Below are positions 7,121 through 46,550 of a stretch of 64,000 nt of DNA, one piece after another; position 1 is the first letter of the stretch; each line of letters begins with the position of its first letter. The translations under genes and the position numbers were made by a program. The DNA lies in the NCBI RefSeq assembly GCF_013122565.1, contig NZ_CP053258.1. One strand, 5' to 3'. The notes beneath the pieces were generated by a model. The model made no database searches. It saw nothing but the letters and a program-made list of their open reading frames with translations, and was not told the DNA's origin. This DNA comes from Escherichia coli (lineage in GTDB: Bacteria; Pseudomonadota; Gammaproteobacteria; Enterobacterales; Enterobacteriaceae).

Positions 7121-8335
7121 TTACCAGTTCCACAATGTGCCATCTTCCAGTCGTGCGACGGGGAGATACGCCGGGTCATACGGATATTTCGCCGCCAGTT
7201 TCTCATCGAAAGAAATACCCAGCCCCGGTTCATCGCCTGGGTGCATATAACCTTCATCGAAGCGCCAGCTGTGCGGGAAGACTTCAAGCATTTGTTCGGA
7301 ATAGCCCATGTACTCCTGAACGCCAAAGTTTGGCACCCAGAGGTCAAAATGCAGCGCCGCCGCATGACAAACAGGCGATAAATCTGAAGGGCCATGCGAA
7401 CCGGTACGTACCTGATAAAGCGATGCAAAATCGGCAATCCGTCGCATCCCGGTAATGCCGCCTGCATGGGTAATCGTCGTGCGAATATAGTCAATCAGCT
7501 GCTCTTCGATTAACTGCTTGCAGTCCCAGATACTGTTAAACACTTCACCGACCGCAATCGGCGTCACGGTGTGCTGGCGAATCAGACGGAAACATTCCTG
7601 GTTCTCGGCAGGCGTAGGATCTTCCATCCAGAACAGGCGGTAATCCTCAATGCTCTTCCCAAAGCGCGCCGCTTCGATGGGGGTCAGGCGATGGTGCATG
7701 TCATGCAACAGATGTTCGTTAAAACCGAACTTATTACGCACCGCTTCAAATAACTTCGGCGTAAAATCGAGATACTTTTCTGAAGACCACAACTGCTCTT
7801 CTGGCCACAGGCCTTTGGTTGCCGGTTCATACGCCAGTCCTTTGCCCTTCGCCAGGCCATAAGTGGTTTGCATACCCGGTACACCACACTGCACACGAAT
7901 CGCCTTAAAGCCCATGTGCTGGTGCTTTGCATAGTCTTCAAGGACTTCATCAATCGTACGCCCGGTGGTGTGGCAATAAACCATCACGCCTTCACGAGAA
8001 GCACCACCAAGCAGTTGATACAATGGCATATTTGCCGCTTTAGCTTTGATATCCCACAACGCCATATCAATGGCAGAAATGGCTGACATCGTGACGGGGC
8101 CACGTCGCCAGTAAGCACCTTTATAAAAGAATTGCCAGATATCTTCGATACGGCTGGCATCGCGGCCAATTAGTTGTGGACAAAGATGATCTTTCAGATA
8201 AGAAGCGACCGACAATTCGCGACCATTTAACGTGGCATCTCCTAATCCACAAAGTCCGCTTTCAGTGGTTATTTTAAGCGTAACGAAATTACGCCCTGGG
8301 CAAGTAACAAAAACATCCGCAGCAATAATTTTCAT
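7121..8335 (-). CDS. Enolase-superfamily sugar-acid dehydratase, D-mannonate dehydratase (ManD)/RspA-like; accessory
   Basis: The ORF-track entry is 424 aa; the likely start is [43 protein letters not shown], preceded by an AGGAG Shine-Dalgarno, and this N-terminus closely resembles E. coli RspA and ManD-family enzymes. Confidence 0.8.
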
Positions 8336-34210: not shown

Positions 34211-34542
34211 GGAAAAGCCGAAGGGCGTCAACCGAAAAATGACCACTGATGGTGAGGAAATATCAGGGAAGTTGAAATTTTTTCATCTGAAGAAAAAAAC
34301 AGGGATACCAATGTTCAGTATGAGGTGAATATTGGGAAAATGCTGACGTTATTAATTTTATATTTATTTAAATGATGATTCATTCTGATTTATTTACTTA
34401 AAAAATGAATTATATTTTCAAATAAAACAAAAAGATACTTTAAGCCTCTCCGGCCTCCTCGCTTTTAATTTTGAACCACTTCAAACAAATAATAAATTCC
34501 TAAGAATTAAGTTGCAGACAAATTATACATCCCTCACGATAA

Positions 34543-34580
34543 GTAGAACGTTCTAGTAGAACGTTCTACTTATATAAATA
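34543..34580 (+). promoter_or_regulatory. Tandem perfect 12-bp palindromes (TAGAACGTTCTA x2) overlapping a -10-like TATAAAT; putative LacI-type operator and promoter for the EIICB operon
   Basis: gtagaacgttctag-tagaacgttctac at about 34543..34569, 55 to 80 bp upstream of the EIICB start, followed by tatataaat. The palindrome has the central CG and AACGTT core typical of LacI/GalR-family operators. Confidence 0.55.
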
Positions 34581-34623
34581 ATCGTTCTTGCGCAGTCATC
34601 TGCGCTATTCGGGGGAAATCAGC

Positions 34624-36123
34624 ATGGGTCTGATATCGAGTGTCGTAAAATCACTTTCTAAACTGTCGATGATTGGTCGCGCGCTGATGCTGCCAATTTC
34701 GCTTCTGCCTGCCGCCGGGTTGTTGCTGGCGTTCGGCGATAAATTCCACATGCCGTTGATGATGAATGCCGGCGGTATCATTTTTGATAACTTGCCGATG
34801 CTTTTTGCTATCGGTTCTGCCGTGGGACTGGCTTCAGAATCGGGTATTGCGGCGCTATCCGCAGCTGTATCCGTCTTTGTCACTAATATCACCATCGGTA
34901 CTGTCCTTGGCATCACACCAGAGATGGCCGGGCAAGGCGGTAAATATGCGATGGTGGTGGGGATCCCAACGCTGCAAATGGGCGTCTTCGGCGGCCTGAT
35001 ATGCGGGGTTCTGGCGGCGTGGTGTTACAACCGTTTTCATACCATGCAATTACCAGAATTCCTTGGCTTTTTCTCCGGCAAACGCTTCGTGGCTATCGCG
35101 ACGGCTTTTCTTTCCTTCATCCTTGGCTTGTTACTGCCCTATGTCTGGCAACATATTCAGTCGGGAATCGATGCCCTATCAGTTATCGTCAATGGTGATA
35201 ACCAGGCGGCATCGACCTTTATTTTTGGTGTGACAGAACGTGCGCTCATTCCGCTTGGCCTGCACCACATCTGGTATCCATCGTTCTGGTACTCTTTTGG
35301 TGATTACACCACCCAGGCAGGCCAAATGATCCACGGTGACCAAACAATTTGGTTCAAAATGCTGGAAGAAGGTGTGAAATCGTTCAGTAGCGACAGCTAC
35401 CATAACGCGGGTAAGTTTTTACAGGGCGAGTTCCCGCTCATGCTGTTCGCGCTGCCTGCGGCGTGTCTGGCGATGTACCATGAAGCACACACCAAAAATA
35501 AGAAAATTGCCGCCGGTATTCTGTTCTCTGCCGCATTAACCTGTTTCCTGACAGGTATTACAGAACCCGTTGAATTTACCTTTATTTTCGTGGCACCGGT
35601 ACTGTACGTATTCAACGCGATAATGGCTGGCCTCTCCTATATGGCGATGTATCTGCTCCATGCCCATATTGCAAAATCCTTCTCGGCAGGGCTTATCGAT
35701 TATATTTCGTTTGGCATCCTGCCATCATTTAACGGCTACGAAACCAACTTCCTGAGTGCCATTATTGTTGGCGTACCGATGGCGATTATCTATTACTTCA
35801 CTTTCCGCTTTGTTATTCGCCGTTTTGATGTGAAAACACCGGGTCGAGCCGAAAGCACCGTATCCGCTAACGATAAAACCGATGATGAACTGGCTACGGA
35901 AATTATCAGTCTGCTGGGCGGCCAACAAAATATCTCTTCCGTCGCATCCTGCATAACACGCCTGCGTCTGGAAGTGGCAGATAAGGATGTAGTTGATAAA
36001 GATGGACTGAACAATGTCGGTGCTCGTGGTGTGGTTTTTGTCGGCGATAACGGCATTCAGGTGATTTTTGGCGCACGTGCACAATTTATCGCGCAAACCA
36101 TGTCGACGATGATTGGCAAATAG
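34624..36123 (+). CDS. PTS glucose-family EIICB component, sugar specificity unknown; accessory
   Basis: About 499 aa from MGLISSVVKSLSKLSMIGRALMLPISLLPAAGLLLAFGD, preceded by a GGGGGA Shine-Dalgarno. A PtsG/MalX-like EIIC domain is followed by a C-terminal EIIB domain with the phosphorylatable Cys motif SCITRLRLEV. The ORF-track start at 34588 is probably too far upstream. No EIIA gene is adjacent. Confidence 0.85.
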   Translation: MGLISSVVKSLSKLSMIGRALMLPISLLPAAGLLLAFGDKFHMPLMMNAGGIIFDNLPMLFAIGSAVGLASESGIAALSAAVSVFVTNITIGTVLGITPEMAGQGGKYAMVVGIPTLQMGVFGGLICGVLAAWCYNRFHTMQLPEFLGFFSGKRFVAIATAFLSFILGLLLPYVWQHIQSGIDALSVIVNGDNQAASTFIFGVTERALIPLGLHHIWYPSFWYSFGDYTTQAGQMIHGDQTIWFKMLEEGVKSFSSDSYHNAGKFLQGEFPLMLFALPAACLAMYHEAHTKNKKIAAGILFSAALTCFLTGITEPVEFTFIFVAPVLYVFNAIMAGLSYMAMYLLHAHIAKSFSAGLIDYISFGILPSFNGYETNFLSAIIVGVPMAIIYYFTFRFVIRRFDVKTPGRAESTVSANDKTDDELATEIISLLGGQQNISSVASCITRLRLEVADKDVVDKDGLNNVGARGVVFVGDNGIQVIFGARAQFIAQTMSTMIGK

Positions 36124-36196
36124 TCATAAGATTACGCTTTGTTGGAGGTTCTGGTCCCTGACTGGAACCTTCGTACTTATTGTTCAGGGAGTGAAG

Positions 36197-37213
36197 TTGA
36201 AGAAAGTCAGCATAATTGATGTTGCCAAAAGCGCAGGAGTCTCGGTCTCTACTGTGTCGCTGGTCCTGCGCCAGAAAGGCAAAATTTCCGAGGCAACCAT
36301 CGAGAAAGTTCATGCTGCCATTACTGAGCTTGGCTACGTGCATAATGTTGCCGCCGCCAATTTACGCTCCAACACTTCAAATCTTATCGGTCTGATTTTA
36401 CGTGATTTTAGCGATAGCTTTTCCATCAAAGTGATGGCAAGTATTGTTCAGGAACTGGAAGCACAAGGATATATGGTTTTCCTCGGGCAACCACAGAACG
36501 AGCATGAACATCTTGAACGCTGTTTGCTTTCCTTCAAGCAACAAGGTGTTGCCGGAGTGATTTATCTGGCTTCCGATGCGCAGCGTGAAACCTTACCCGC
36601 GCTGATTCGCCAGTGCCCTCTTCCTCTTGTCGTCGCCTCACAATCCCCCATCAAAGATGAATGCAATCTGGTATTGCGCGACAACCAGCAGGCGGCAAGC
36701 CTTGCCACGCGTTATTTAATTGAGCGTGGACATCGTTACATTGCCTACCTCGGCGGCAGAGAAAGCGATCTTATCCGCCAACAGCGACTGGTGGGTTTTC
36801 GCCAGACCCTGGCAAAATTCGGTATTGCCAGTCGTGACGAGTTCACGCCAGCCTGTGACGATGATACATACGCCGCCAGCATGGCCACGCGCCAGTTGCT
36901 GGAGAATAACAATGCCATCACCGCCCTACTCTGCCATTCGCCCGAGGCCATGATTGGCGGTATCAACGGCATACATCAGGTGGGGCGCACCGTCGGGAGA
37001 GACATCTTTCTGACCCAGCAGGTGGCGCTAATTGGTTTTGAAGATATGCTGCACATCAATCTGACCTCGCCCGTTTTCACCTATGTCTCTTCCGCCAGTG
37101 AAGAAACCGGACGCCAGGCTGCTAATCTAATAATCCGCAAGTTAAAAGACCCGGAGCTGCAAATTCAAAGAATTGCGCTTTCCGGGCAACTGGTAGTGCG
37201 GGAATCGGCGTAA
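36197..37213 (+). CDS. LacI-family transcriptional regulator; accessory
   Basis: The N-terminal HTH (KKVSIIDVAKSAGVSVSTVSLVLRQKGKIS) is the LacI/GalR signature, followed by a periplasmic-binding-protein-like sugar-binding domain. The likely start is TTG or GTG at 36191..36197 after AGGGAG, giving about 338 aa; the ORF-track start at 36113 overlaps the EIICB gene. Confidence 0.8.
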   Translation: MKKVSIIDVAKSAGVSVSTVSLVLRQKGKISEATIEKVHAAITELGYVHNVAAANLRSNTSNLIGLILRDFSDSFSIKVMASIVQELEAQGYMVFLGQPQNEHEHLERCLLSFKQQGVAGVIYLASDAQRETLPALIRQCPLPLVVASQSPIKDECNLVLRDNQQAASLATRYLIERGHRYIAYLGGRESDLIRQQRLVGFRQTLAKFGIASRDEFTPACDDDTYAASMATRQLLENNNAITALLCHSPEAMIGGINGIHQVGRTVGRDIFLTQQVALIGFEDMLHINLTSPVFTYVSSASEETGRQAANLIIRKLKDPELQIQRIALSGQLVVRESA

Positions 37214-37336
37214 TTATTTCTGCCAGTCTCCGTCTTTAGCCGGCGGTCATCGCCACAACTGCACTGATGGATATGGTATTCTTTCGAGTATCTTTGCGGG
37301 CACTAACGCCAGGAGTATCGCCATGAGAATGGCGCG

Positions 37337-38818
37337 ATGAACACAGGGAATTTCGAGTCGATACAAATCATACTCGACGCGCAAGAGTGGCGTAGCCTGC
37401 CGCTGCATCTGCGTCTGTATCACGCTTTTCGCCAATTGGTGATTTCCGGCGCGTTGTCTGATGGCGCAAAGCTGCCGTCCGCTCGCGCACTGGCCCAGCA
37501 ACTTGGTCTTTCCAGAGATACCGTCGAAAATGCCTATTCCCAGCTTCAGCGCGACGGTTTTATGACCCGCAGGCAGGGAGCCGGGAGTTTCGCCAGCCGC
37601 CAGGGGATCCCGCAAATTCAGGGGCAGCACGCTCAGCCCCCCTCGCCCGGACAAGCACCGGCATTAACCGCCCGCTGGCAGCCGATTGCCGATCGCGCCG
37701 TCTCTTTCGATGCCCGCCAGATGCAGACCTTTACGCTTGGCCTGCCGGAAACGCGAAACTTCCCGCTAAACATTTGGCAGAACTTTTCCCGCCAGATCCA
37801 ACGTGAGCAGGCGCATACGCTGATGTTAAATAGCGATCCGCAGGGCGAGCCGGAGCTGCGCCAGCAAATTGCGCATTACCTTAATTTTGAACGCGGCGCG
37901 AAGGTAGATGCAGAGCAGATTGTGATTGTCAGCGGCGCACGGCAGGCGTTCTGGCTGTGCGGGCAACTGCTGGCAGAGGCCGGGCAATCAGTGGCGATGG
38001 AAAATCCAGGCTATCCCGGCGCGCGTCAGGCGTTTTCTGCCGCACAGCTTAATCTTCTTCCCGTTGAAGTGGATGACGCCGGGATCCGGGTGGATAAACT
38101 GCCGCCCGCACCGCTGGTTTACGTCACGCCGTCGCACCAGTTTCCTTCTGGTCATTTGCTCACGCTGGCGCGCCGTCACGCCCTGATTGCCTGGGCACAG
38201 GCGCACAATGCGTGGATTATTGAAGACGACTACGACAGCGAATTTCACTACACCAGCGCGCCCGTCGCCTGTCTGCAAGGGTTAGACTGCGAGCAACGCA
38301 CCCTGTATGTCGGCACTTTCAGCAAAACGCTCTATCCTGGTTTGCGCATTGGTTATCTGGTGGTGCCTGCCTCGCTGGCTGCGCACTTTGCCGCCGCACG
38401 TAATTTGCTTGATGGCGCAACGCCTGCGTTATCCCAACTGACGCTGGCGCGATTTATCGAGTCCGGTCATTTTGCCGCCCATATTCGCACCATGCGCAAT
38501 ATGTACGCGGTGCGACAGGCGAGCCTTGCAGAGGCTATTCATCAGCACTTAAGTGAATGGGTCACGCCAGTGGTGACATCCGGTGGATTACAAATGCCCT
38601 GCTGGCTGCATGAAGATGTTGATGAGCAACAGACGCTGAACGCGGCGCGCCGCGCCGGGTTAAATATCGCCGGGATGCGCCAGTTCTGGCTGACGCACCC
38701 CGCGCCCGCGGGCTGGCTGCTGGGATTCGCCGCCTTTACCCCCTACGAAATTGAGCAGGGAGTCAAGCGTCTGCGGGCTGCATTATGCGCTGAAAACGTG
38801 CGCCCAGCCGGGTCATAA
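37337..38818 (+). CDS. MocR/GabR-family transcriptional regulator (GntR HTH fused to a PLP aminotransferase-like domain); accessory
   Basis: 493 aa. The N-terminal winged HTH (LYHAFRQLVISGALSDGAKLPSARALAQQLGLSRDTVENAYSQLQRDGF) is followed by a long aminotransferase class I/II-like domain. Confidence 0.8.
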   Translation: MNTGNFESIQIILDAQEWRSLPLHLRLYHAFRQLVISGALSDGAKLPSARALAQQLGLSRDTVENAYSQLQRDGFMTRRQGAGSFASRQGIPQIQGQHAQPPSPGQAPALTARWQPIADRAVSFDARQMQTFTLGLPETRNFPLNIWQNFSRQIQREQAHTLMLNSDPQGEPELRQQIAHYLNFERGAKVDAEQIVIVSGARQAFWLCGQLLAEAGQSVAMENPGYPGARQAFSAAQLNLLPVEVDDAGIRVDKLPPAPLVYVTPSHQFPSGHLLTLARRHALIAWAQAHNAWIIEDDYDSEFHYTSAPVACLQGLDCEQRTLYVGTFSKTLYPGLRIGYLVVPASLAAHFAAARNLLDGATPALSQLTLARFIESGHFAAHIRTMRNMYAVRQASLAEAIHQHLSEWVTPVVTSGGLQMPCWLHEDVDEQQTLNAARRAGLNIAGMRQFWLTHPAPAGWLLGFAAFTPYEIEQGVKRLRAALCAENVRPAGS

Positions 38819-39869
38819 TCTCATACGGGATGGTGTCGCAGGCAGCCGCAACCTCTTCCAGCGTCTGGCCTGTGCCAATAAACTCCACCTTATCGCCCGC
38901 CGTCGGCGTGACGGCGCTGGCATCGACCATAAAGCTGTCCATACACACCCGCCCCAACACCGGTAACCGCACCCCGCGCCAGCATACGCCCGCCGGAGGA
39001 CGCATATTTCGCGGAACGCCATCCGCGTAACCCGCGGATATCGTGGCGATACGCAGCGGACGCGTGGCGGTAACCGTGCTGCCGTAGCCAACTGGCGTTC
39101 CGGCCGGAACATCCTGCACGCGCAGTATGGTCAGCGTCAGCGTAAAGACCGGTTTTAACGGCCTGGAAAACCACGGCTGGGTGACGCCAAACAGCGCAAT
39201 CCCCGGACGGCAGAGATCTTCCCGCCAGCCCGAGTGCAAAAACATCCCGCAGGAGTTCGCCAGCGAAAATCGGCTGCTGGGGAAAACCGTTTTTGCCTGC
39301 TGAAGTCGCGCGTGTTGCGCCATATTTAACGCATGATCCGGCCTGTCGGCGTTCGCCAGATGGCTGATGATATAATCCGGCGCAGGCCAGTTACGCTCAC
39401 GAAAAATCGCCGCCAGACGCATCAGTTGTTGCGACATCACGCCCAGCCGCGACATCCCGGAATCGAGCTGAATCATCACCGCACGCCGCTGCTGGCGCGT
39501 TTCCAGTAACGTAAGCCACGCCATCACCTGGTCTACGGAATTGAGCAATGGCGTGATCTGCTGCGCGTAACAAAATGCCATCGCCTCCGGCATAACCCCA
39601 TTAAGCACCACCACCCGCGCATCAGCGGGCAAGCATTTACGCAGCGCCACACCTTCAGAAAGCTGCGCGACAAAAAAGATCCGGCAGTTCGCCGCATACA
39701 GGGCGGGAGCAATCGCCTCCGCCCCCAGACCATAGGCATTCGCCTTCAACACCGCGCCACATTGCGCACGGGCAGCATGGCGGGCCAGGGTGCGATAATT
39801 TTCGACAATGGCGGCGAGATTGACGCACATAACGCCGCACGCCGCCTGAATTTCAGCAAGAGTTATCAT
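38763..39869 (-). CDS. Alanine racemase-family PLP enzyme (fold type III); accessory
   Basis: 368 aa. Contains the PLP-lysine motif [11 protein letters not shown] near the N-terminus and an Alr-like C-terminal beta domain. Overlaps the MocR 3' end by about 56 bp (convergent) and the downstream SHMT-like gene by 4 bp. Confidence 0.8.
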
Positions 39870-41104
39870 TGATAAGGCAACGGATAGCGGTTGGTTAGTT
39901 GTATTACTTTTTGCTCAATATCGGCGCAAATGTCTGCAATATCTGACGCGTTAATGGCCAGAATGATTTCACTTATCCAGTCAGCAATAAGCGCAAAGTC
40001 ATCCGCCTGCATCCCACGCGTGGTGCAGGCCGCGCTGCCAATACGAACGCCGGAGGTAATCGACGGCGGCTGCGGATCGCCCGGCAGGGTGTTTTTATTA
40101 ACCGTGATCCCCGCCAGTTCGAGAAAATACTCTACCTGTGCGCCGGTTAACCCCTGCGGGCGCAGGTCGATAATCCCCAGATGGCAATCGGTGCCGCCCG
40201 TTAACAGCGTCAGACCGCGCTGCGCCAGTTGCTGGCACATCGCCTGCGCATTGTCGATGACCTGCCCGGCATAACGTTTAAATTCCGGTTGTAATGCCTC
40301 GCCAAGCGCCACCGCTTTCGCCGCGATAACGTGCATCAACGGCCCGCCCTGCAAACCGGGAAAGATGGCGCTGTCGATTTTTTTCGCAAGCCGGGCGTCG
40401 TTGGTGAGGATCATGCCGCCGCGCGGCCCGCGCAACGTTTTATGCGTGGTGGTGGTGACCACATCAGCATACGCCAGCGGCGAAGGGAAACAGCCGCCCG
40501 CCACCAGCCCGGCAAAGTGCGCCATATCCACCAGCAAAATGGCGCCCACGGCATCGGCAATGCGGCGAAAACGGGCAAAATCATAGCGGCGTGGATAAGC
40601 CGATCCTCCGGCAATAATCAACCGTGGGCGCTCACGCAGCGCGATCATCTCGACTTCATCCATATCAATCAGGCCACTATGGGCATCGACGCCATAGTGA
40701 AAAGCGTTAAACCATTTGCCAGATTGATTGACCGGCGAACCGTGCGTGAGATGCCCGCCGCATTGCAGGCTCATGCCAAGAATTTTGTCGCCGGGTTTCA
40801 GCAACGCCAGATAGACCGCCTGATTCGCCTGGCTGCCGGAGTGAGGCTGCACATTGACGTAACGTGCGCCAAAGAGTTGCTGGGCGCGGGTTATCGCCAG
40901 CATCTCAACCTCATCAATAAACTTACAGCCGCCGTAGTAGCGATGCTGGTAATAACCTTCGGCGTATTTATTGGTTAACACCGACCCCTGCGCCGCGAGA
41001 ACAGCGGGGCTTACGAAATTCTCCGAGGCAATCAGTTCCAGCGACTACTGCTGGCGCTGTTGCTCCTGGTTAATCAATGCAAAAAGTGGATCGTTATTTA
41101 TCAT
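39866..41104 (-). pseudogene. Serine hydroxymethyltransferase (GlyA)-like PLP enzyme with an in-frame amber stop at codon 20
   Basis: Reverse-strand translation from ATG at about 41104 gives [50 protein letters not shown]..., then continues through the SHMT signatures HSGSQAN and [16 protein letters not shown]. The TAG is at about 41045..41047 where GlyA has Glu. The ORF-track entry is only the 371-aa reinitiation product from GTG at 40981. Confidence 0.75.
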
Positions 41105-41337
41105 GCGCTTCCCCCGAAAATTCATCATGCGATGATTTTCGCAGGGAAAACGTCGCCCGCACCCTGCCACTTTTTAGAATGAGCGCAGACCACCTATGTC
41201 GTTTTACTTAAAAGAAGAGGGAAGAAGGCTCCAGGCATCTCCATATGCGATTCTGGTTGGTAATACATCATATTCCAGCTGCTCTTATCTGCCTACGTTA
41301 TTGCATAGGCAGAATAAGGCAGCCTCAATACGTACTT

Positions 41338-42891
41338 TTACTTGATATATTTCACGCGCATACCGTTGATCTGTTCATCCGTGATGGTGTTACCCGCTTT
41401 GAAGTAATCAACCACGGCGTGATAAACGTAATAACCGCCCGTTGTGTTACGCGCTTTCCCTTCGGTAAAGGCGGTAAAACCATCTCCACCATCAGCAAGG
41501 AAACTCTGGGTGGCAATAGAATAAACTGTCGCATCTTCAATGGGTTTGCCATTCAGAGTCAGTGTGATTACCCGCTGACCAACCGGCTTGCTGCTGTCGT
41601 ACTTCATTTCCAGGCCTTTCGATACCTGTAAAACGCCATTACTTAAACTTGCGCCGTGTTCCATCAAACTGCGTAATTGTTTCCCTGTGAGATCCATCGT
41701 CACCAGTTCGTTGGGGAACGGGAAGGTACTGATGACGCCGCCCATCGTAATCGCCCCTGCGGGGATCTCATTGCGAATACCGCCAGAGTTGGTTAAGGCT
41801 ATTTGGGTGTTTTTACCCGCCGCTACCAGTAAAGCGTCAGCCGCCAGGTTCCCGAGGGAAGCCGATTCACCATAGGCACGTTTTAATTCAACCGGCGATT
41901 GCGCCACCGTTTGTTGCACCACTTCATCAAGCTTTTTATTCCAGCCGTCGATCACCTGTTTTGTTTGCGGATCGGGCTTCCACTCGTCGGCGTAAATGGT
42001 TTTCAGCTCGAAGTTTTTCACCGTAAAATCATGCGGCTTCTCTTTGTAGTCGAGGACCAGTTTGCCCACATCAATCCCGCCGCTGTCAGTGGAGAGGATG
42101 AGCGTATTGCCGACTTTAATCGGTTCCGGCGTACCCACATGTGCATGTCCGGTGATCAAAATATCCAGCCCTTTCACCTGACTTGCCGTCTGAATATCTT
42201 TATCCAGTGCGCGACGCACATCGGTCCCTCCCATACTGGACTGGCGGGCCGGAACACCTTCATGGATCAGGGCGACGGTCAAATCAACCTTGCCTTTAAG
42301 TTCATCGATATAACGTTGTAGCCATTTAATTTCATCGCGCGCTTCAATACCCACGCGCGTGGCAGCAGATACCGTATCGTTGAAAGCAAATACTCCGTGC
42401 AAACCTATAACGCCTATTTTCACGCCGTCTTTTTCGATGATGGTATATGGCTTATCCCAGAATGATTTACTGCTGTTCTGATAAAAAACATTGCCCTGCA
42501 CAATAGGGAATTTTGCCTGACTCAACTGTAATAATGTGTTGTCCCAGCCGTGGTCAAATTCATGGTTGCCTATCGTGACGGCATCAAACGGCATAGTATT
42601 CATAATATCGATAATAGCCTTACCTTTGGTCAGGCTGCTGATATATGGCCCGGTAAAATAATCACCCGCATCAAAAAACCATGTCGCTTTATTTTTTGCT
42701 TTTTCTTGCTTAACCAGCGTAGTGATATTTGCCCAGCCGCCAATATCCCGTTTACCGTCAGCGATCCACGGCACTTTATAAGGCTCGACATGCGCATGGA
42801 GGTCGTTGGTATAAATGATGGTGACATCTTTGGCGCAAGCCCAGAACGGCAATGTTAATGCGATACCCGCAGCAAGTATTTTAATTTTCAT
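41338..42891 (-). CDS. Secreted metallophosphoesterase / 5'-nucleotidase-family protein (UshA/CpdB-like); accessory
   Basis: 517 aa with an N-terminal signal peptide ([20 protein letters not shown]) and calcineurin-like phosphoesterase motifs ([36 protein letters not shown]), followed by a C-terminal 5'-nucleotidase-type domain. Confidence 0.8.
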
Positions 42892-43023
42892 AAATAGTCC
42901 CTTTCAGTGATTTAAAGGATTGCTACATTACGTTCTGAAAGAGTTATTTATGTGAGAGTAATCACATCCGCAGGGGATAGTTGCCGGACAAAATCAACGA
43001 CCTTGTGAAATCGTTGGTGATAT

Positions 43024-44154
43024 ATGTCAACTCTGTTTACGATTAATGCCTGCAAGTCGTTTGGTTGCCGTAATTTAGGGCAACCAACATCGACAGATTA
43101 CAGCTGGCCAGACTATCGACTGGGTTATCCGGCACTGCACTGTCGGGCATGTGGAAGTTACCCGCCGTTGTTTGACGAACAGCAATTTCGTGACTGGTTG
43201 TCAGTTCACTTATCTACTTTTGCAACTGAGAAAGGTCATTTCTGCCCGGTATGTTATGGCACAAAGACGATTTGTTATGGCCACAATCCACAGGGGTCGC
43301 AACGCATTCAATGTCGTAACTGCAAAAAAGTCTGGACACCTAAACAATATCAGAAAGAAATAACGCCTCCTGAAATAATCGAAACGGTTGCTCTTCTGGT
43401 GCCATTTCAGGGAGCCAGCAATGGGCAGAAACTGTATGTTTTAATCAGTTTTGATGCTCTTCGCGGTAATATTCTTCATCTTTCTACTAATTACACGCAG
43501 CATCAGGCTGGAGAAAGTCTGCATTATCGATACAGAGGAAATGCAGAACCAGAGTTACACGAGAGTAATATTGTACAACGCGTTGATATGCGCGAAGCAC
43601 AATTTCTACGCCGCAGTCAGTTTGATGAAATTCAGTATGGCAGCGCAGCGCTCAAACGCAATGCTAAAGGTATTATTCTGCGTCCGGTTATCACTGCACA
43701 CGGGCATTTCAGAGTACTGAATATTTTATTCCCTACAGTAAAAACACATGTAATTTCACACGAGTGTTTTTTAAGAGGTGCCATTATTACGGCATGGGCT
43801 GATCTGTTTCGCCAACAGCAAGGTGAAATTTGGTTTATTGAAGAGGAAATAGCTGACTATACCGATAATATGCCCTGGAGTTTTCAGGGAACAACATATC
43901 ACGGCTGGTGGAAAAATCAGTGGCAACTTTGGGGTCAGGGCAAAAATCGTAAAATGGTATGTGCATTAACAGGCGGAAATAACAGCAAAGCTGAAATGCT
44001 CTCTTTCGCAACCAGCAGACATTTTATCGACTGGCTACATAAACAAGCAGTATTTACTCACAGCACCCCGCTTTCCGCAGGGCGCGTTACGCAAATACTG
44101 CTTTCTCTGGCTCAGGATTACAACAACTGCGCCAGCCGGTTGATATCCGACTGA
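43024..44154 (+). CDS. Cys-rich protein with two N-terminal zinc-ribbon motifs (IS1 InsA-like finger), rest unknown; accessory
   Basis: 376 aa. Motifs C-x5-C...HC-x2-C and CPVC...GSQRIQCRNCKKVW; the latter resembles the IS1 InsA zinc-finger region (from memory). The last 12 codons overlap the metL 3' end on the opposite strand. Confidence 0.6.
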   Translation: MSTLFTINACKSFGCRNLGQPTSTDYSWPDYRLGYPALHCRACGSYPPLFDEQQFRDWLSVHLSTFATEKGHFCPVCYGTKTICYGHNPQGSQRIQCRNCKKVWTPKQYQKEITPPEIIETVALLVPFQGASNGQKLYVLISFDALRGNILHLSTNYTQHQAGESLHYRYRGNAEPELHESNIVQRVDMREAQFLRRSQFDEIQYGSAALKRNAKGIILRPVITAHGHFRVLNILFPTVKTHVISHECFLRGAIITAWADLFRQQQGEIWFIEEEIADYTDNMPWSFQGTTYHGWWKNQWQLWGQGKNRKMVCALTGGNNSKAEMLSFATSRHFIDWLHKQAVFTHSTPLSAGRVTQILLSLAQDYNNCASRLISD

Positions 44155-46550
44155 ATCGCCCCGGCGGTGACATCGCGCCCTGCGCCTGGTCCGCGGATCA
44201 CCAGAGGGTTATCGCGATACCAGCGGCTTTCGATGGCAAAGACGTTATCGCACGGCAGCAGTGATGCCAGCGGATGATCTTCACGCACCGCTTCCACGCC
44301 CACACGCGCTTTGCCGTTGGCATCGAAACGCGCCACGTAGCGCAGCACCAGCCCCATTTCGCGGGCCGCTTCCAGCCGTTGCAACATCTGCTCGTTGAGT
44401 TCATCGCCGTTTTCAAAGAAATGGTCGATGCTACCGCCTTCGCAATGGGCAGGCACCAGCGATTCCACGCGCACCTGATCCGGTTCGATGTCGTAACCCG
44501 CTTCACGCGCCAGAATCACCAGCTTGCGCATTACGTCTTTGCCGGAGAGGTCGTCACGCGGATCAGGCTCGGTTAAGCCCTGCTGCCACGCCTGATCCAC
44601 CAGCTCGGTAAACGGCACGCTACCGTCGAATTGCAGGAACAGCCAGGAGAGCGTGCCGGAGAAGATCCCACTGATCGACAAAATAGTATCGCCGCTGTCG
44701 ATCAGATCGCGCACGGTGTGGTTGATCGGCAAGCCCGCGCCGACGGTAGCGTTGTACAGCCAGTGACGCCCGGTTTTTTCGAAGGCGTCGTGGATCTGGC
44801 GATATTTATTGCTGTCGCTGGCTCCTGCCAGTTTGTTGGCGCTAATGACGTGGAAACCGTGGCTGGCGAAATCGAGATACTGGTCAGCAAGCTGCTGGCT
44901 GGCGGTAACGTCCAGCACCACTAAATCATCATACGGATGGGCGCGCATCCACAGGAACAGCGACTCTTCATCCTGCTCAACCGCTTCATCGTTGAAGAAG
45001 GCTAACGCGCGGCTGGCGTCCAGCCCGTCATAACTCAACAGGCTGCGGCGGCTGTCCACCACGCCTGCCAGCACAAATTCAAAGCCGGTACGTGCCGAAA
45101 GCGTGCTCTGCTCACGGGCGAACAGTTCCAGCCAGCGGGAACCGATATTGCCCTTGCCGAACAATACCAGGCCGATGCGTTTTTCCGCGCGGAAGACGGA
45201 CTGATGCAGCCCCTGAATCAGGCTTTCGGTCGGGCCGGTGCGCAGAACTGCCACCAGGCTGATGCCGTCATCGGACTGCCAGGTAAACTCGACCGGCTGG
45301 CCTTTCAGTTGCTGCCAGAAGCGGTGGCAATGCAGCGGGTTACGGGTGACACCCGCCCCGACCATCGCCACCAGCGCCAACCCCTGACGCAGGCGCAGCT
45401 CGCCAGGTAATCCCGCTTCGTCTAGGATTTTCAGCGCACTGTCGGCCACTTCTGAGGTGTAGCAAAATTGCAGCAACTGGCGATCGTTATGCACGCCAAC
45501 CGCCAGTGGGCGCACCTGCGCGCGTTTCAGGATCTGGTCGATCTCTTTATGCGCCAGTTTGAAATCCTGGCTGGCGGGCACCTGAAACTCAATCAAGCAG
45601 ACATCGTCGTGGCTGGTGACAATACGCGCACCAGTACCGGAGGCCAGCACGCGTTCAATGCGCGTGGAACCTTGATCCGGCGTGTAGCTACAGCGCAGTT
45701 GCAGGTCAATTTCGCTGCCTGATACCGGCTGTAAAGTACGGGCGTGGAGAACCGGAGCCGCCAGACGCGCCAGTTCGCTGGCTTCATCCAGACGCAGCAA
45801 CGGCAACAGGCAGGCATCTTTCACTTTACGCGGGTCGGCACTGTATACCCCGGCGACGTCGCTCCAGATGGTTACACGAGAAACACCCGCCAGCGCACCG
45901 ATTTGTGTCGCGGAGTAGTCGGAACCGTTACGCCCCAGCAGCACCGTTTCACCGGCGTTGTTACGGCTGATAAACCCGGTCACCACCAGACGTTTACCCG
46001 GATGTTGTACCAGTAGCTGTTGCAGCAACGGGTAAGAAAGCCCTTCATCAACCTGCGGCTGCGCAGCGCGTTCAGCGCGTAAAAACTCGCGGGCATCAAG
46101 CCAGGCCGCTGGCAGCCCTTGTTGATTAAGTACCGCAGACATCAGGCGCGCCGACCACACTTCACCATGGCCCACCACTTCCGCATACACCGCATCGTTA
46201 ATACCGCTGTCGAGCAGCGCCGCCAGGCGCTCAAGATCGCTGACAAAAGCGCTAATGAGGCTATCGGCTTCTTCAGCGGGTAGCAGACCGCTAATCAGAT
46301 CGCACTGATAGCGACGCAGCGTTTGTTGAACCTGATGCGCAGAGAGACGATCGGTCTGGCTTAGTTTCAACCAGTTAATCAACTGGTTAGTGGTGCTACC
46401 AGCGGCGGAAACCACCATCATATCGTCAGGCTGAGAGTACTCCGCCATAATGCCCGCGACACGCAAATAACACTTCACATCAGCCAGACTACTGCCACCA
46501 AATTTATGCAGTTGACGACCTTTCGCCCCTGCCTGCGCAATCACACTCAT
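44118..46550 (-). CDS. metL: Bifunctional aspartokinase II / homoserine dehydrogenase II
   Basis: 810-aa ORF MSVIAQAGAKGRQLHKFGGSSLADVKCYLRVAGIMAEYSQ... ending ...INRLAQLL. Confidence 0.96.
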   Translation of the reverse strand: MSVIAQAGAKGRQLHKFGGSSLADVKCYLRVAGIMAEYSQPDDMMVVSAAGSTTNQLINWLKLSQTDRLSAHQVQQTLRRYQCDLISGLLPAEEADSLISAFVSDLERLAALLDSGINDAVYAEVVGHGEVWSARLMSAVLNQQGLPAAWLDAREFLRAERAAQPQVDEGLSYPLLQQLLVQHPGKRLVVTGFISRNNAGETVLLGRNGSDYSATQIGALAGVSRVTIWSDVAGVYSADPRKVKDACLLPLLRLDEASELARLAAPVLHARTLQPVSGSEIDLQLRCSYTPDQGSTRIERVLASGTGARIVTSHDDVCLIEFQVPASQDFKLAHKEIDQILKRAQVRPLAVGVHNDRQLLQFCYTSEVADSALKILDEAGLPGELRLRQGLALVAMVGAGVTRNPLHCHRFWQQLKGQPVEFTWQSDDGISLVAVLRTGPTESLIQGLHQSVFRAEKRIGLVLFGKGNIGSRWLELFAREQSTLSARTGFEFVLAGVVDSRRSLLSYDGLDASRALAFFNDEAVEQDEESLFLWMRAHPYDDLVVLDVTASQQLADQYLDFASHGFHVISANKLAGASDSNKYRQIHDAFEKTGRHWLYNATVGAGLPINHTVRDLIDSGDTILSISGIFSGTLSWLFLQFDGSVPFTELVDQAWQQGLTEPDPRDDLSGKDVMRKLVILAREAGYDIEPDQVRVESLVPAHCEGGSIDHFFENGDELNEQMLQRLEAAREMGLVLRYVARFDANGKARVGVEAVREDHPLASLLPCDNVFAIESRWYRDNPLVIRGPGAGRDVTAGAIQSDINRLAQLL

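Follow-up and report, generated by a model that had tools for sequence, protein, structure and literature searches.

In this study, we analysed a stretch of 64,000 nucleotides from the Escherichia coli contig NZ_CP053258.1 (assembly GCF_013122565.1), hereafter called the window. It contains a variable region with metJ-metB-metL at one end and metF-katG at the opposite end, and our subject is the open reading frame (ORF) of 376 amino acids that lies at the metL edge of this region. We use the short name ZnR for it; RefSeq labels it either 'hypothetical' or 'cytoplasmic protein'. An earlier interpretation made from the letters alone, called here the sequence-only reading, stated that the ORF ends 37 bp inside metL. 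This is correct: metL occupies 44118..46550 on the minus strand, and the two convergent genes overlap at 44118-44154. The gene and the parts of its product are as follows.

43024..44154, plus strand: ZnR ORF (376 amino acids), ATG start; very probably an exapted homologue of IS1-like transposases
43051..43152, plus strand: zinc ribbon 1 (C10, C15, C40, C43), residues at least 90% conserved in alignment A1
43243..43323, plus strand: zinc ribbon 2 (C74, C77, C97, C100), InsA/IS1-type by profile matches at family level
43375..43812, plus strand: RNase H-like core, residues ~118-263, topology b1-b2-b3-a1-b4-a2-b5-a3
43825..44124, plus strand: four-stranded sheet (residues 268-314, GWWxxxW motif) and C-terminal helical bundle reaching Y366-N367, from A1 and the AlphaFold2 model

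Full-length orthologues of ZnR (374-391 amino acids, 62-80% identity) were identified in Citrobacter, Klebsiella, Enterobacter, Kluyvera and Pluralibacter, and likewise in Pseudocitrobacter, E. albertii and Salmonella. Among Vibrionaceae and other Gammaproteobacteria there are longer relatives that possess an additional helix-turn-helix (HTH). The family is small, comprising 118 clusters at 50% identity, and the loci examined place it in Gammaproteobacteria only; 51 of its sequences make up alignment A1. Neither a family model covering ZnR nor a characterised member was found in Pfam and NCBIfam. A PADLOC search gave zero matches, and a search of PDB sequences gave only compositional matches to C2H2 zinc fingers and no solved structure, while AFDB50 returned family members only. 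Relatives carry the database names 'cytoplasmic protein' or 'IS1 family transposase', the second of which is wrong. Literature searches found no description of the family.

The two N-terminal Cys4 ribbons noticed in the sequence-only reading are genuine features of the family. Their spacing is C10-x4-C15...C40-x2-C43 in the first and C74-x2-C77...C97-x2-C100 in the second, and in A1 every one of these cysteines except C74 is either invariant or conserved to at least 90%. Ribbon 1, with strands at residues 26-30 and 37-40 of the AlphaFold2 model, lies ahead of the InsA-like finger, and IS1 has nothing equivalent to it. The proposed resemblance of ribbon 2 to the InsA finger holds at the level of the family, ZnR itself staying below the thresholds: it reaches 21.3 bits against the IS1/IS1595 Zn domain model NF050000 (cut-off 28) and E=0.11 against Pfam Zn_ribbon_InsA (PF03811). 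The latter model is matched by 8 of the 51 family members at E of 1e-3 or lower, and three relatives with 27-40% identity (P0141, P0123 and P0142) lie above the NCBIfam Zn-domain cut-off. When the family hidden Markov model was compared with IS1 InsAB', it scored 38 bits over residues 4-88, which is the whole of InsA, finger and HTH. The NCBIfam IS1 transposase model matches relatives of ZnR with E values of 1e-9 to 1e-7; in two of these relatives the match reaches as far as position 130-140 of the model.

Distant relatives, 400-530 amino acids long, have about 60 more residues after ribbon 2, ahead of the RNase H-like domain. This extra segment aligns with the InsA HTH, and in a structure model of the relative P0166 (predicted local distance difference test, pLDDT, 89.5) it forms three helices. 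In ZnR and the other enteric forms no HTH follows the finger, A1 having a gap there and residues 98-117 containing no helices. The enterobacterial form has lost the InsA-type HTH of most relatives.

The AlphaFold2 model of ZnR, built with the family alignment, has a pLDDT of 93.9 and a predicted template modelling score (pTM) of 0.93. For the 270 C-terminal residues, in which nothing had been recognised before, it revealed an RNase H-like fold of the DDE-transposase type; the order of strands and helices in the core identifies it as the fold of a transposase catalytic domain. The DDE triad had been sought earlier in vain, and we do not find one in ZnR either, E247 being the only acidic residue conserved in A1. 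Catalytic positions were mapped by topology and alignment. Those where Asp would be expected, in b1 and after b4, are not acidic, and a conserved proline, P221, follows b4. In the relative whose alignment enters the catalytic domain, the first catalytic Asp of IS1, D109, aligns to a gap or Thr. We also considered D144 (of 'SFD') as a DDE residue and rejected it; its column is not conserved, and its counterpart in the alignment with IS1 is D129, a non-catalytic residue. Other invariant or nearly invariant residues in A1 are R197, H228, H246, W296, W300 and N367. An hhalign comparison of the whole family with IS1 drew its score from finger and HTH only. We hold with high confidence that ZnR is an exapted, inactive IS1-like transposase.

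The gene shows no sign of mobility. It is present in 1744 of 5426 complete E. coli genomes (about one third), including ATCC 25922 and extraintestinal (ExPEC) and avian (APEC) pathogenic strains, with a median of one copy per genome at the same locus in these 1744 genomes. It is a single uninterrupted ORF without a -1 frameshift. Repeat searches in the window and at the ATCC 25922 locus (L041) found no inverted repeats or target-site duplications around ZnR, and downstream of the gene there is no second copy of the promoter box described below. The sequence-only reading had placed the gene at the edge of an island and proposed a search for terminal inverted repeats and target-site duplications at about 34200 and 44120. 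No significant repeats were found at the borders 34278/44117, which show none of the features expected of a mobile island (direct or inverted repeats, an integrase or a tRNA), and ZnR is not island cargo bounded by repeats. The ratio of nonsynonymous to synonymous substitution rates (dN/dS) is 0.09-0.14 both within E. coli and between genera, and judged from these substitutions ZnR is under purifying selection and not decayed. This selection, the full-length homologues in many genera and the confident structure model show that the reading frame did not arise by chance. Among the options first offered for this gene, domesticated transposase thus stands and regulator is probably right, whereas a decayed gene does not agree with a dN/dS of ~0.1.

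These data bear directly on the view that ZnR is an IS1-family element, whether active or in decay, or else a pseudogene at an island edge with a C-terminus cut short by insertion. Such a view could appeal to the InsA-type finger, to the automatic annotation of some relatives as 'IS1 family transposase' and to the metL overlap. It has to face, however, a single copy at one locus with neither inverted repeats, target-site duplication, frameshift nor DDE triad, the low dN/dS, and conservation over the full length across genera with conserved neighbours. Moreover, a genuine IS1 is at hand for comparison: in E. coli ET201 an IS1B (L043 910-1677) has inserted into ZnR and split the gene. Its 23-bp ends are GGTAATGACTCCAACTTATTGAT and GGTGATGCTGCCAACTTACTGAT and it is bordered by the 9-bp duplication GCATCAGGC; with these inverted repeats and duplication, a real IS1 element looks entirely different from ZnR. 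The mobile-element or pseudogene explanation, extremely improbable in our estimate, is already refuted by this evidence.

Next to ZnR, on its upstream side, lie a divergent gene and a short control region.

41338..42891, minus strand: divergent partner, a metallophosphatase/5'-nucleotidase of 517 amino acids with N-terminal signal peptide
42892..43023, unstranded: divergent control region of 132 bp that separates ZnR from the 5'-nucleotidase gene (alignment A3)
42951..42966, unstranded: CRP-like site TGTGAGAGTAATCACA, 10/10 core matches
42999..43018, minus strand: box ACCAACGATTTCACAAGGTC, a candidate operator, its start 60 bp away from the centre of the CRP-like site

In E. coli, Citrobacter, Enterobacter and Klebsiella alike, ZnR is divergent from a gene for a periplasmic 5'-nucleotidase (517-520 amino acids), separated from it by a spacer of ~133 bp; the other flank differs by genus. 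The wider context was compared in relatives with 20-40% identity to ZnR. At the P0142 locus the homologue is again divergent from a 5'-nucleotidase gene (127-bp spacer). It is divergent from nupC-deoCABD at the P0148 locus and in Gynuella, from nupC and a nucleoside phosphorylase (PNP_UDP) gene at the P0138 locus, and from deoB-deoD and a NupG-like symporter gene at the P0141 locus. In Vibrionaceae, Psychromonas and their allies the homologue directly follows the 5'-nucleotidase gene, in the same orientation and after a gap of 20-98 bp, in 21 of 24 loci. Altogether, 5'-nucleotidase or nupC/deo genes adjoin the homologue in about 30 of the 33 loci examined. ZnR belongs, as a fixed, single-copy gene, to a module for scavenging nucleotides and nucleosides that comprises periplasmic 5'-nucleotidases, Tsx and NupC/deo genes.

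The P0175 subfamily (L013-L015) is placed elsewhere, between matP and a pair of radical S-adenosylmethionine (anSME-like) and sulfatase genes. It has neither the nucleoside context nor the box-CRP composite described below, being the sole subfamily context without such a link, and it may therefore have a different target. The idea that paralogues of ZnR are regulators linked to sulfatases was set aside, since this context alone pointed to it.

The divergent control region is 86% conserved across the four enteric genera, above coding DNA. The centre of the CRP-like site is ~64-65 bp from both start codons, and its agreement with the consensus suggests that CRP would bind there. Just before the ATG of ZnR lies an inverted repeat, TCAACGA (42994-43000)-N10-TCGTTGG (43011-43017), that includes the box. 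We also considered this hairpin as an RNA element, which is less likely because the predicted -10 would put the start of transcription inside its left arm.

The same combination recurs in distant relatives. In promoters of Vibrionaceae 5'-nucleotidase genes, ACCAAC.CAAATGGTAACT is followed by a CRP site. Counted from its first base, A(C/T)CAAC lies 60 bp away from the CRP centre in enterics, at the P0123, P0138 and P0141 loci and in most Vibrionaceae, and the order of box, CRP site and scavenging gene is constant. A search for the composite, defined as an A(C/T)CAAC box and, 59-61 bp from it, a site that matches the CRP core at 8/10 positions or more, found a single match in the window, the one beside ZnR, with 0.06 expected from shuffles. 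The composite lies beside the homologue in 10 of 10 homologue-bearing loci; in nine it is the sole match, L007 having a second, weaker one. As a further approach, 31 promoter regions that cannot otherwise be aligned were anchored on their best CRP-like site alone, blind to the box. The pattern a..AcCAAC.caaa..G.aA.T emerged at fixed register in 26 of them. One-base variants of the box are found in Gynuella and at the P0142 locus. The K-12 promoters of deoC, nupC and tsx contain an A(C/T)CAAC box on neither strand.

Within the box, proximal ACCAAC is constant and the distal half differs between the HTH-containing and HTH-less subfamilies. This difference, seen in few independent lineages, fits an arrangement in which the ribbon would read the box core and the HTH its distal part. 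IS1 ends contain CCAAC too; we take the shared motif as a lead, not as evidence.

Two other palindromes were observed in promoters of this kind. ATCC 25922 (L041) has a second 5'-nucleotidase operon, and upstream of it lie the palindrome TGACCGTGA-N7-TCATGGTCA (7198-7222) and a CRP-like site, TGTTACTAAGATCACA (7246-7261), the region 7198-7261 containing no A(C/T)CAAC box; the palindrome may be an operator for a different factor. At L017, L018, L024, L029 and L034, GCAAACG(A/T)TTGC is located between box and CRP site upstream of the 5'-nucleotidase gene. It has the shape of a LacI-family (PurR/CytR-like) operator and suggests a further layer of control in several Vibrionaceae.

Since scavenging genes and a conserved promoter element accompany ZnR, it is probably the regulator of these neighbours. 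The best reading, which we favour by a small degree over its negation, is that an exapted, catalytically dead IS1-like transposase acts together with CRP as a local regulator. The more specific proposition that ZnR binds the box and regulates the adjacent scavenging genes in a CRP-coupled manner is, as far as the sequences allow a judgement, evenly balanced between true and false. The data establish the homology and fold of ZnR, its missing triad, its synteny, its purifying selection and the conserved composite element. We infer that ZnR itself and no other factor would be the binder of the box; the direction of its effect and a possible ligand belong to the same inferred part of the model.

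The mechanism would then work as follows. Bound to the A(C/T)CAAC box, ZnR would modulate the transcription that cAMP-CRP drives at the adjacent scavenging gene. If CRP is placed at about -41.5, TAATGT (plus-strand 42925-42930), which is invariant, would be the -10 element of the 5'-nucleotidase promoter and CAAAAT (42989-42994) that of the ZnR promoter; because -10 elements on both sides fit this CRP position, one CRP site would serve both promoters. Relative to the 5'-nucleotidase promoter the box would occupy about -101 to -83, and the centres of box and CRP site, ~51 bp or five helical turns apart, would face the same side of the helix. In the divergent enteric layout the box would also cover +1 to +18 of the ZnR transcript, making autoregulation or autorepression possible. 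InsA of IS1 is itself a repressor that binds the ends of IS1.

Several observations weigh against ZnR as a regulator of this kind. The HTH carried by most relatives is missing from ZnR, so that DNA recognition would rest on the ribbons. The C-terminal domain gave no significant match to IS1 InsB in hhalign (Prob 0.3); as sequence homology to InsB is not demonstrable, the IS1 ancestry of this half rests on architecture and fold. The exact composite is missing at L013, L039 and L046, two of which have a one-base variant. The box loosely resembles the consensus WATCAANNNNTTR of the integration host factor IHF. Finally, the conserved R197, H228, H246 and E247 could form a catalytic or ligand site, and the Vibrionaceae gene, which shares an operon with the enzyme, also fits a non-regulatory partner.

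The last two points, together with the HTH-less enteric form, are what one would cite for ZnR as a cytoplasmic enzyme or nucleic-acid/nucleotide-processing protein that takes part in scavenging without regulating it, its RNase H-like scaffold bearing a new H/H/E/R site. R197 and H228 in the core are indeed invariant and H246-E247 nearly so, and the co-directional Vibrionaceae gene follows the 5'-nucleotidase gene at 20-98 bp. Nevertheless, the partner enzymes are exported to the periplasm by a signal peptide that ZnR does not have, its InsA-type finger and the family's HTH are DNA-binding modules, and no catalytic family was matched in Pfam, NCBIfam, PADLOC or PDB sequences. A divergent layout with a conserved operator-like box is, furthermore, typical of local regulators. 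We therefore rate a non-regulatory role as unlikely.

The IHF-like appearance of the box raises another question, namely whether IHF or another host factor occupies it and ZnR regulates without binding it, through protein contacts (e.g. with CRP or CytR) or ligand sensing. The IHF consensus is partly similar to the box, and enterics have kept the box in spite of losing the HTH. The invariant CAAC and the downstream G.AA.T are, on the other hand, not positions of the IHF consensus. The composite occurs only beside family members in all DNA examined, the box is absent from CytR/CRP promoters of K-12, and its distal half tracks the presence of the HTH, as expected if ZnR reads the box. In our opinion regulation without box binding is rather improbable.

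Taking ZnR again as the CRP-coupled regulator, a wider reading extends it to the whole family. An IS1-like DDE transposase would have been exapted family-wide in Gammaproteobacteria as a sequence-specific transcription factor which, in a rigid 60-bp register with cAMP-CRP, controls the scavenging of extracellular nucleotides and nucleosides. Its operator, with the core CCAAC, would derive from a terminal repeat of the ancestral element, and oligomerisation or ligand sensing would be the new role of the dead RNase H-like domain. We put this forward tentatively, with somewhat less than even confidence.

It remains to describe the variable region and its junction with metL.

34278..44116, unstranded: segment absent from K-12 between metF and metL, of varying composition among E. 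coli strains
44118..44154, unstranded: ZnR/metL overlap of 37 bp, in which codons 366-376 (11 codons) are metL antisense; TACAA microhomology at 44119-44123

K-12 is without ZnR. Its homology to the window ends at 44117, one nucleotide beyond the stop codon of metL, and begins again at 34277, upstream of metF, so that the variable-region boundary anticipated by metL is confirmed at 44117/44118. In place of the segment, K-12 has a unique metL-metF spacer of 200 bp (L040 370-569) with the palindromic sequence GCCGGATTAAGCGTTTACGACGAATCCGGC, which resembles repetitive extragenic palindromes (REPs). The minimal form of the segment consists of the 5'-nucleotidase gene (5'NT) and ZnR. The layout in ATCC 25922 and 2013C-4282 is metF-5'NT(-)-ZnR(+)-5'NT-5'NT-tsx(+)-metL(-), and the window-type allele lacks the three genes downstream of ZnR (5'NT, 5'NT, tsx). 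The metL-metF region of ATCC 25922-type strains has been described as 'GR 31', a nucleoside-scavenging module, with the ZnR ORF unmentioned (PMC12928451, 2026).

Homology of the window ZnR to the ATCC 25922 gene extends to 44111, and both proteins have Y366-N367. At the junction the ATCC 25922 gene reads tac aat gaa and the metL stop region c tac aac aac. On the simplest reading of these sequences, the tail of the window ZnR would be the scar of an old deletion at the TACAA microhomology that removed two 5'-nucleotidase genes and tsx. The conserved part of ZnR ends at N367, and the deletion would accordingly have replaced the variable tail only. The earlier idea of a C-terminus set by a junction is right in this respect; the junction would be a deletion scar, not one of insertion. 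It is common to the whole class of alleles with 95-99% identity, and strain WP4-S17-ESBL-03, with the minimal layout metF-5'NT-ZnR-metL, has the same one. In Citrobacter the two-gene 5'NT-ZnR module adjoins metL too, and ZnR (391 amino acids) ends 35 bp before metL without overlap.

Two deeply diverged alleles of ZnR exist in E. coli, one with 95-99% identity in 1167 genomes and the other with ~80% in 567. Between the window and ATCC 25922, synonymous divergence (dS) is 1.14 for ZnR (window 43024-44117 against L041 6001-7088) and 0.14 for the adjacent 5'-nucleotidase gene (window 41341-42891 against L041 4318-5868). The window allele is equally close to a Klebsiella sp. orthologue and to the other E. 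coli allele. The contrast in dS and the closeness to Klebsiella imply that the allele recombined or was imported, the breakpoint lying close to the intergenic region.

The full arrangement at 34278-44116 was found in no complete E. coli genome, best coverage being 73%. It has the look of a mosaic that combines two layouts, the pair of phosphotransferase system (PTS) EIIC and MalI-like genes of LHM10-1 and the MocR-like/alanine racemase/serine hydroxymethyltransferase (SHMT) set of 2013C-4282. The SHMT-like gene (39866-41128, minus strand) has an in-frame stop at codon 28, and its counterpart in 2013C-4282 is marked as a pseudogene that contains an internal stop. Directly upstream of the PTS EIIC gene (34588-36123), a perfect 17-bp palindrome, ATAAGTAGAACGTTCTA-g-TAGAACGTTCTACTTAT, is present at 34539-34573. 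The gene for a MalI-like LacI-family regulator (36113-37213) comes after the EIIC gene, and the palindrome is probably the operator of this regulator.

Comparison with known systems begins with IS1. Like InsA and InsAB', most members of the ZnR family have an InsA-type Cys4 finger followed by an HTH, and like InsAB', ZnR continues into an RNase H-like domain of the DDE-transposase type. An operator-like site adjoins the start of its own gene, as in IS1, and the CCAAC shared with IS1 ends is a lead only. Unlike IS1, the family possesses an extra N-terminal ribbon, a beta-sheet and a helical C-terminal extension, has no -1 frameshift, DDE triad or terminal repeats, and is single-copy, syntenic and under purifying selection.

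The second comparison concerns control of deo, tsx, nupC, cdd and udp by CytR and cAMP-CRP. The gene set is physiologically the same, the promoters depend on CRP, and a second protein binds at a fixed distance from CRP, as is predicted for ZnR. At the CytR-controlled promoter deoP2 the distal CRP site lies ~52 bp upstream, and the position of the ZnR box matches that of this site. CytR is nonetheless a LacI-family protein, and ZnR has no LacI or periplasmic-binding-protein domain according to Pfam and NCBIfam; its box differs in sequence from the CytR octamers and is absent from CytR-regulated promoters of K-12.

Eukaryotes offer well-documented cases of domesticated DDE transposases that serve their hosts as transcription factors. 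Among transposase-derived transcription factors of eukaryotes are FHY3/FAR1, which stem from Mutator-like elements (PMC13306707). Like them, ZnR would be a DDE transposase exapted as a sequence-specific regulator, with the DNA-binding module and the fold kept and mobility lost. It differs in being bacterial and of IS1-type origin, and it would be coupled to CRP. In bacteria and phages, TldR proteins are RNA-guided transcription factors derived from TnpB (PMC13418256). ZnR would resemble them as a bacterial transposon-encoded nuclease that lost catalysis and turned into a transcription factor; TldR comes from RuvC-type TnpB and is RNA-guided, whereas ZnR descends from a transposase of the DDE type, and nothing about it hints at a guide RNA. 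To our knowledge, a domesticated DDE transposase acting as a host transcription factor has not been described in bacteria, and our literature searches found no bacterial example. If our reading is true, ZnR would represent a new class of regulator in the classic CRP/CytR nucleoside regulon, and since its operator is predicted in fixed phase with CRP, the hypothesis is directly testable in a tractable organism.

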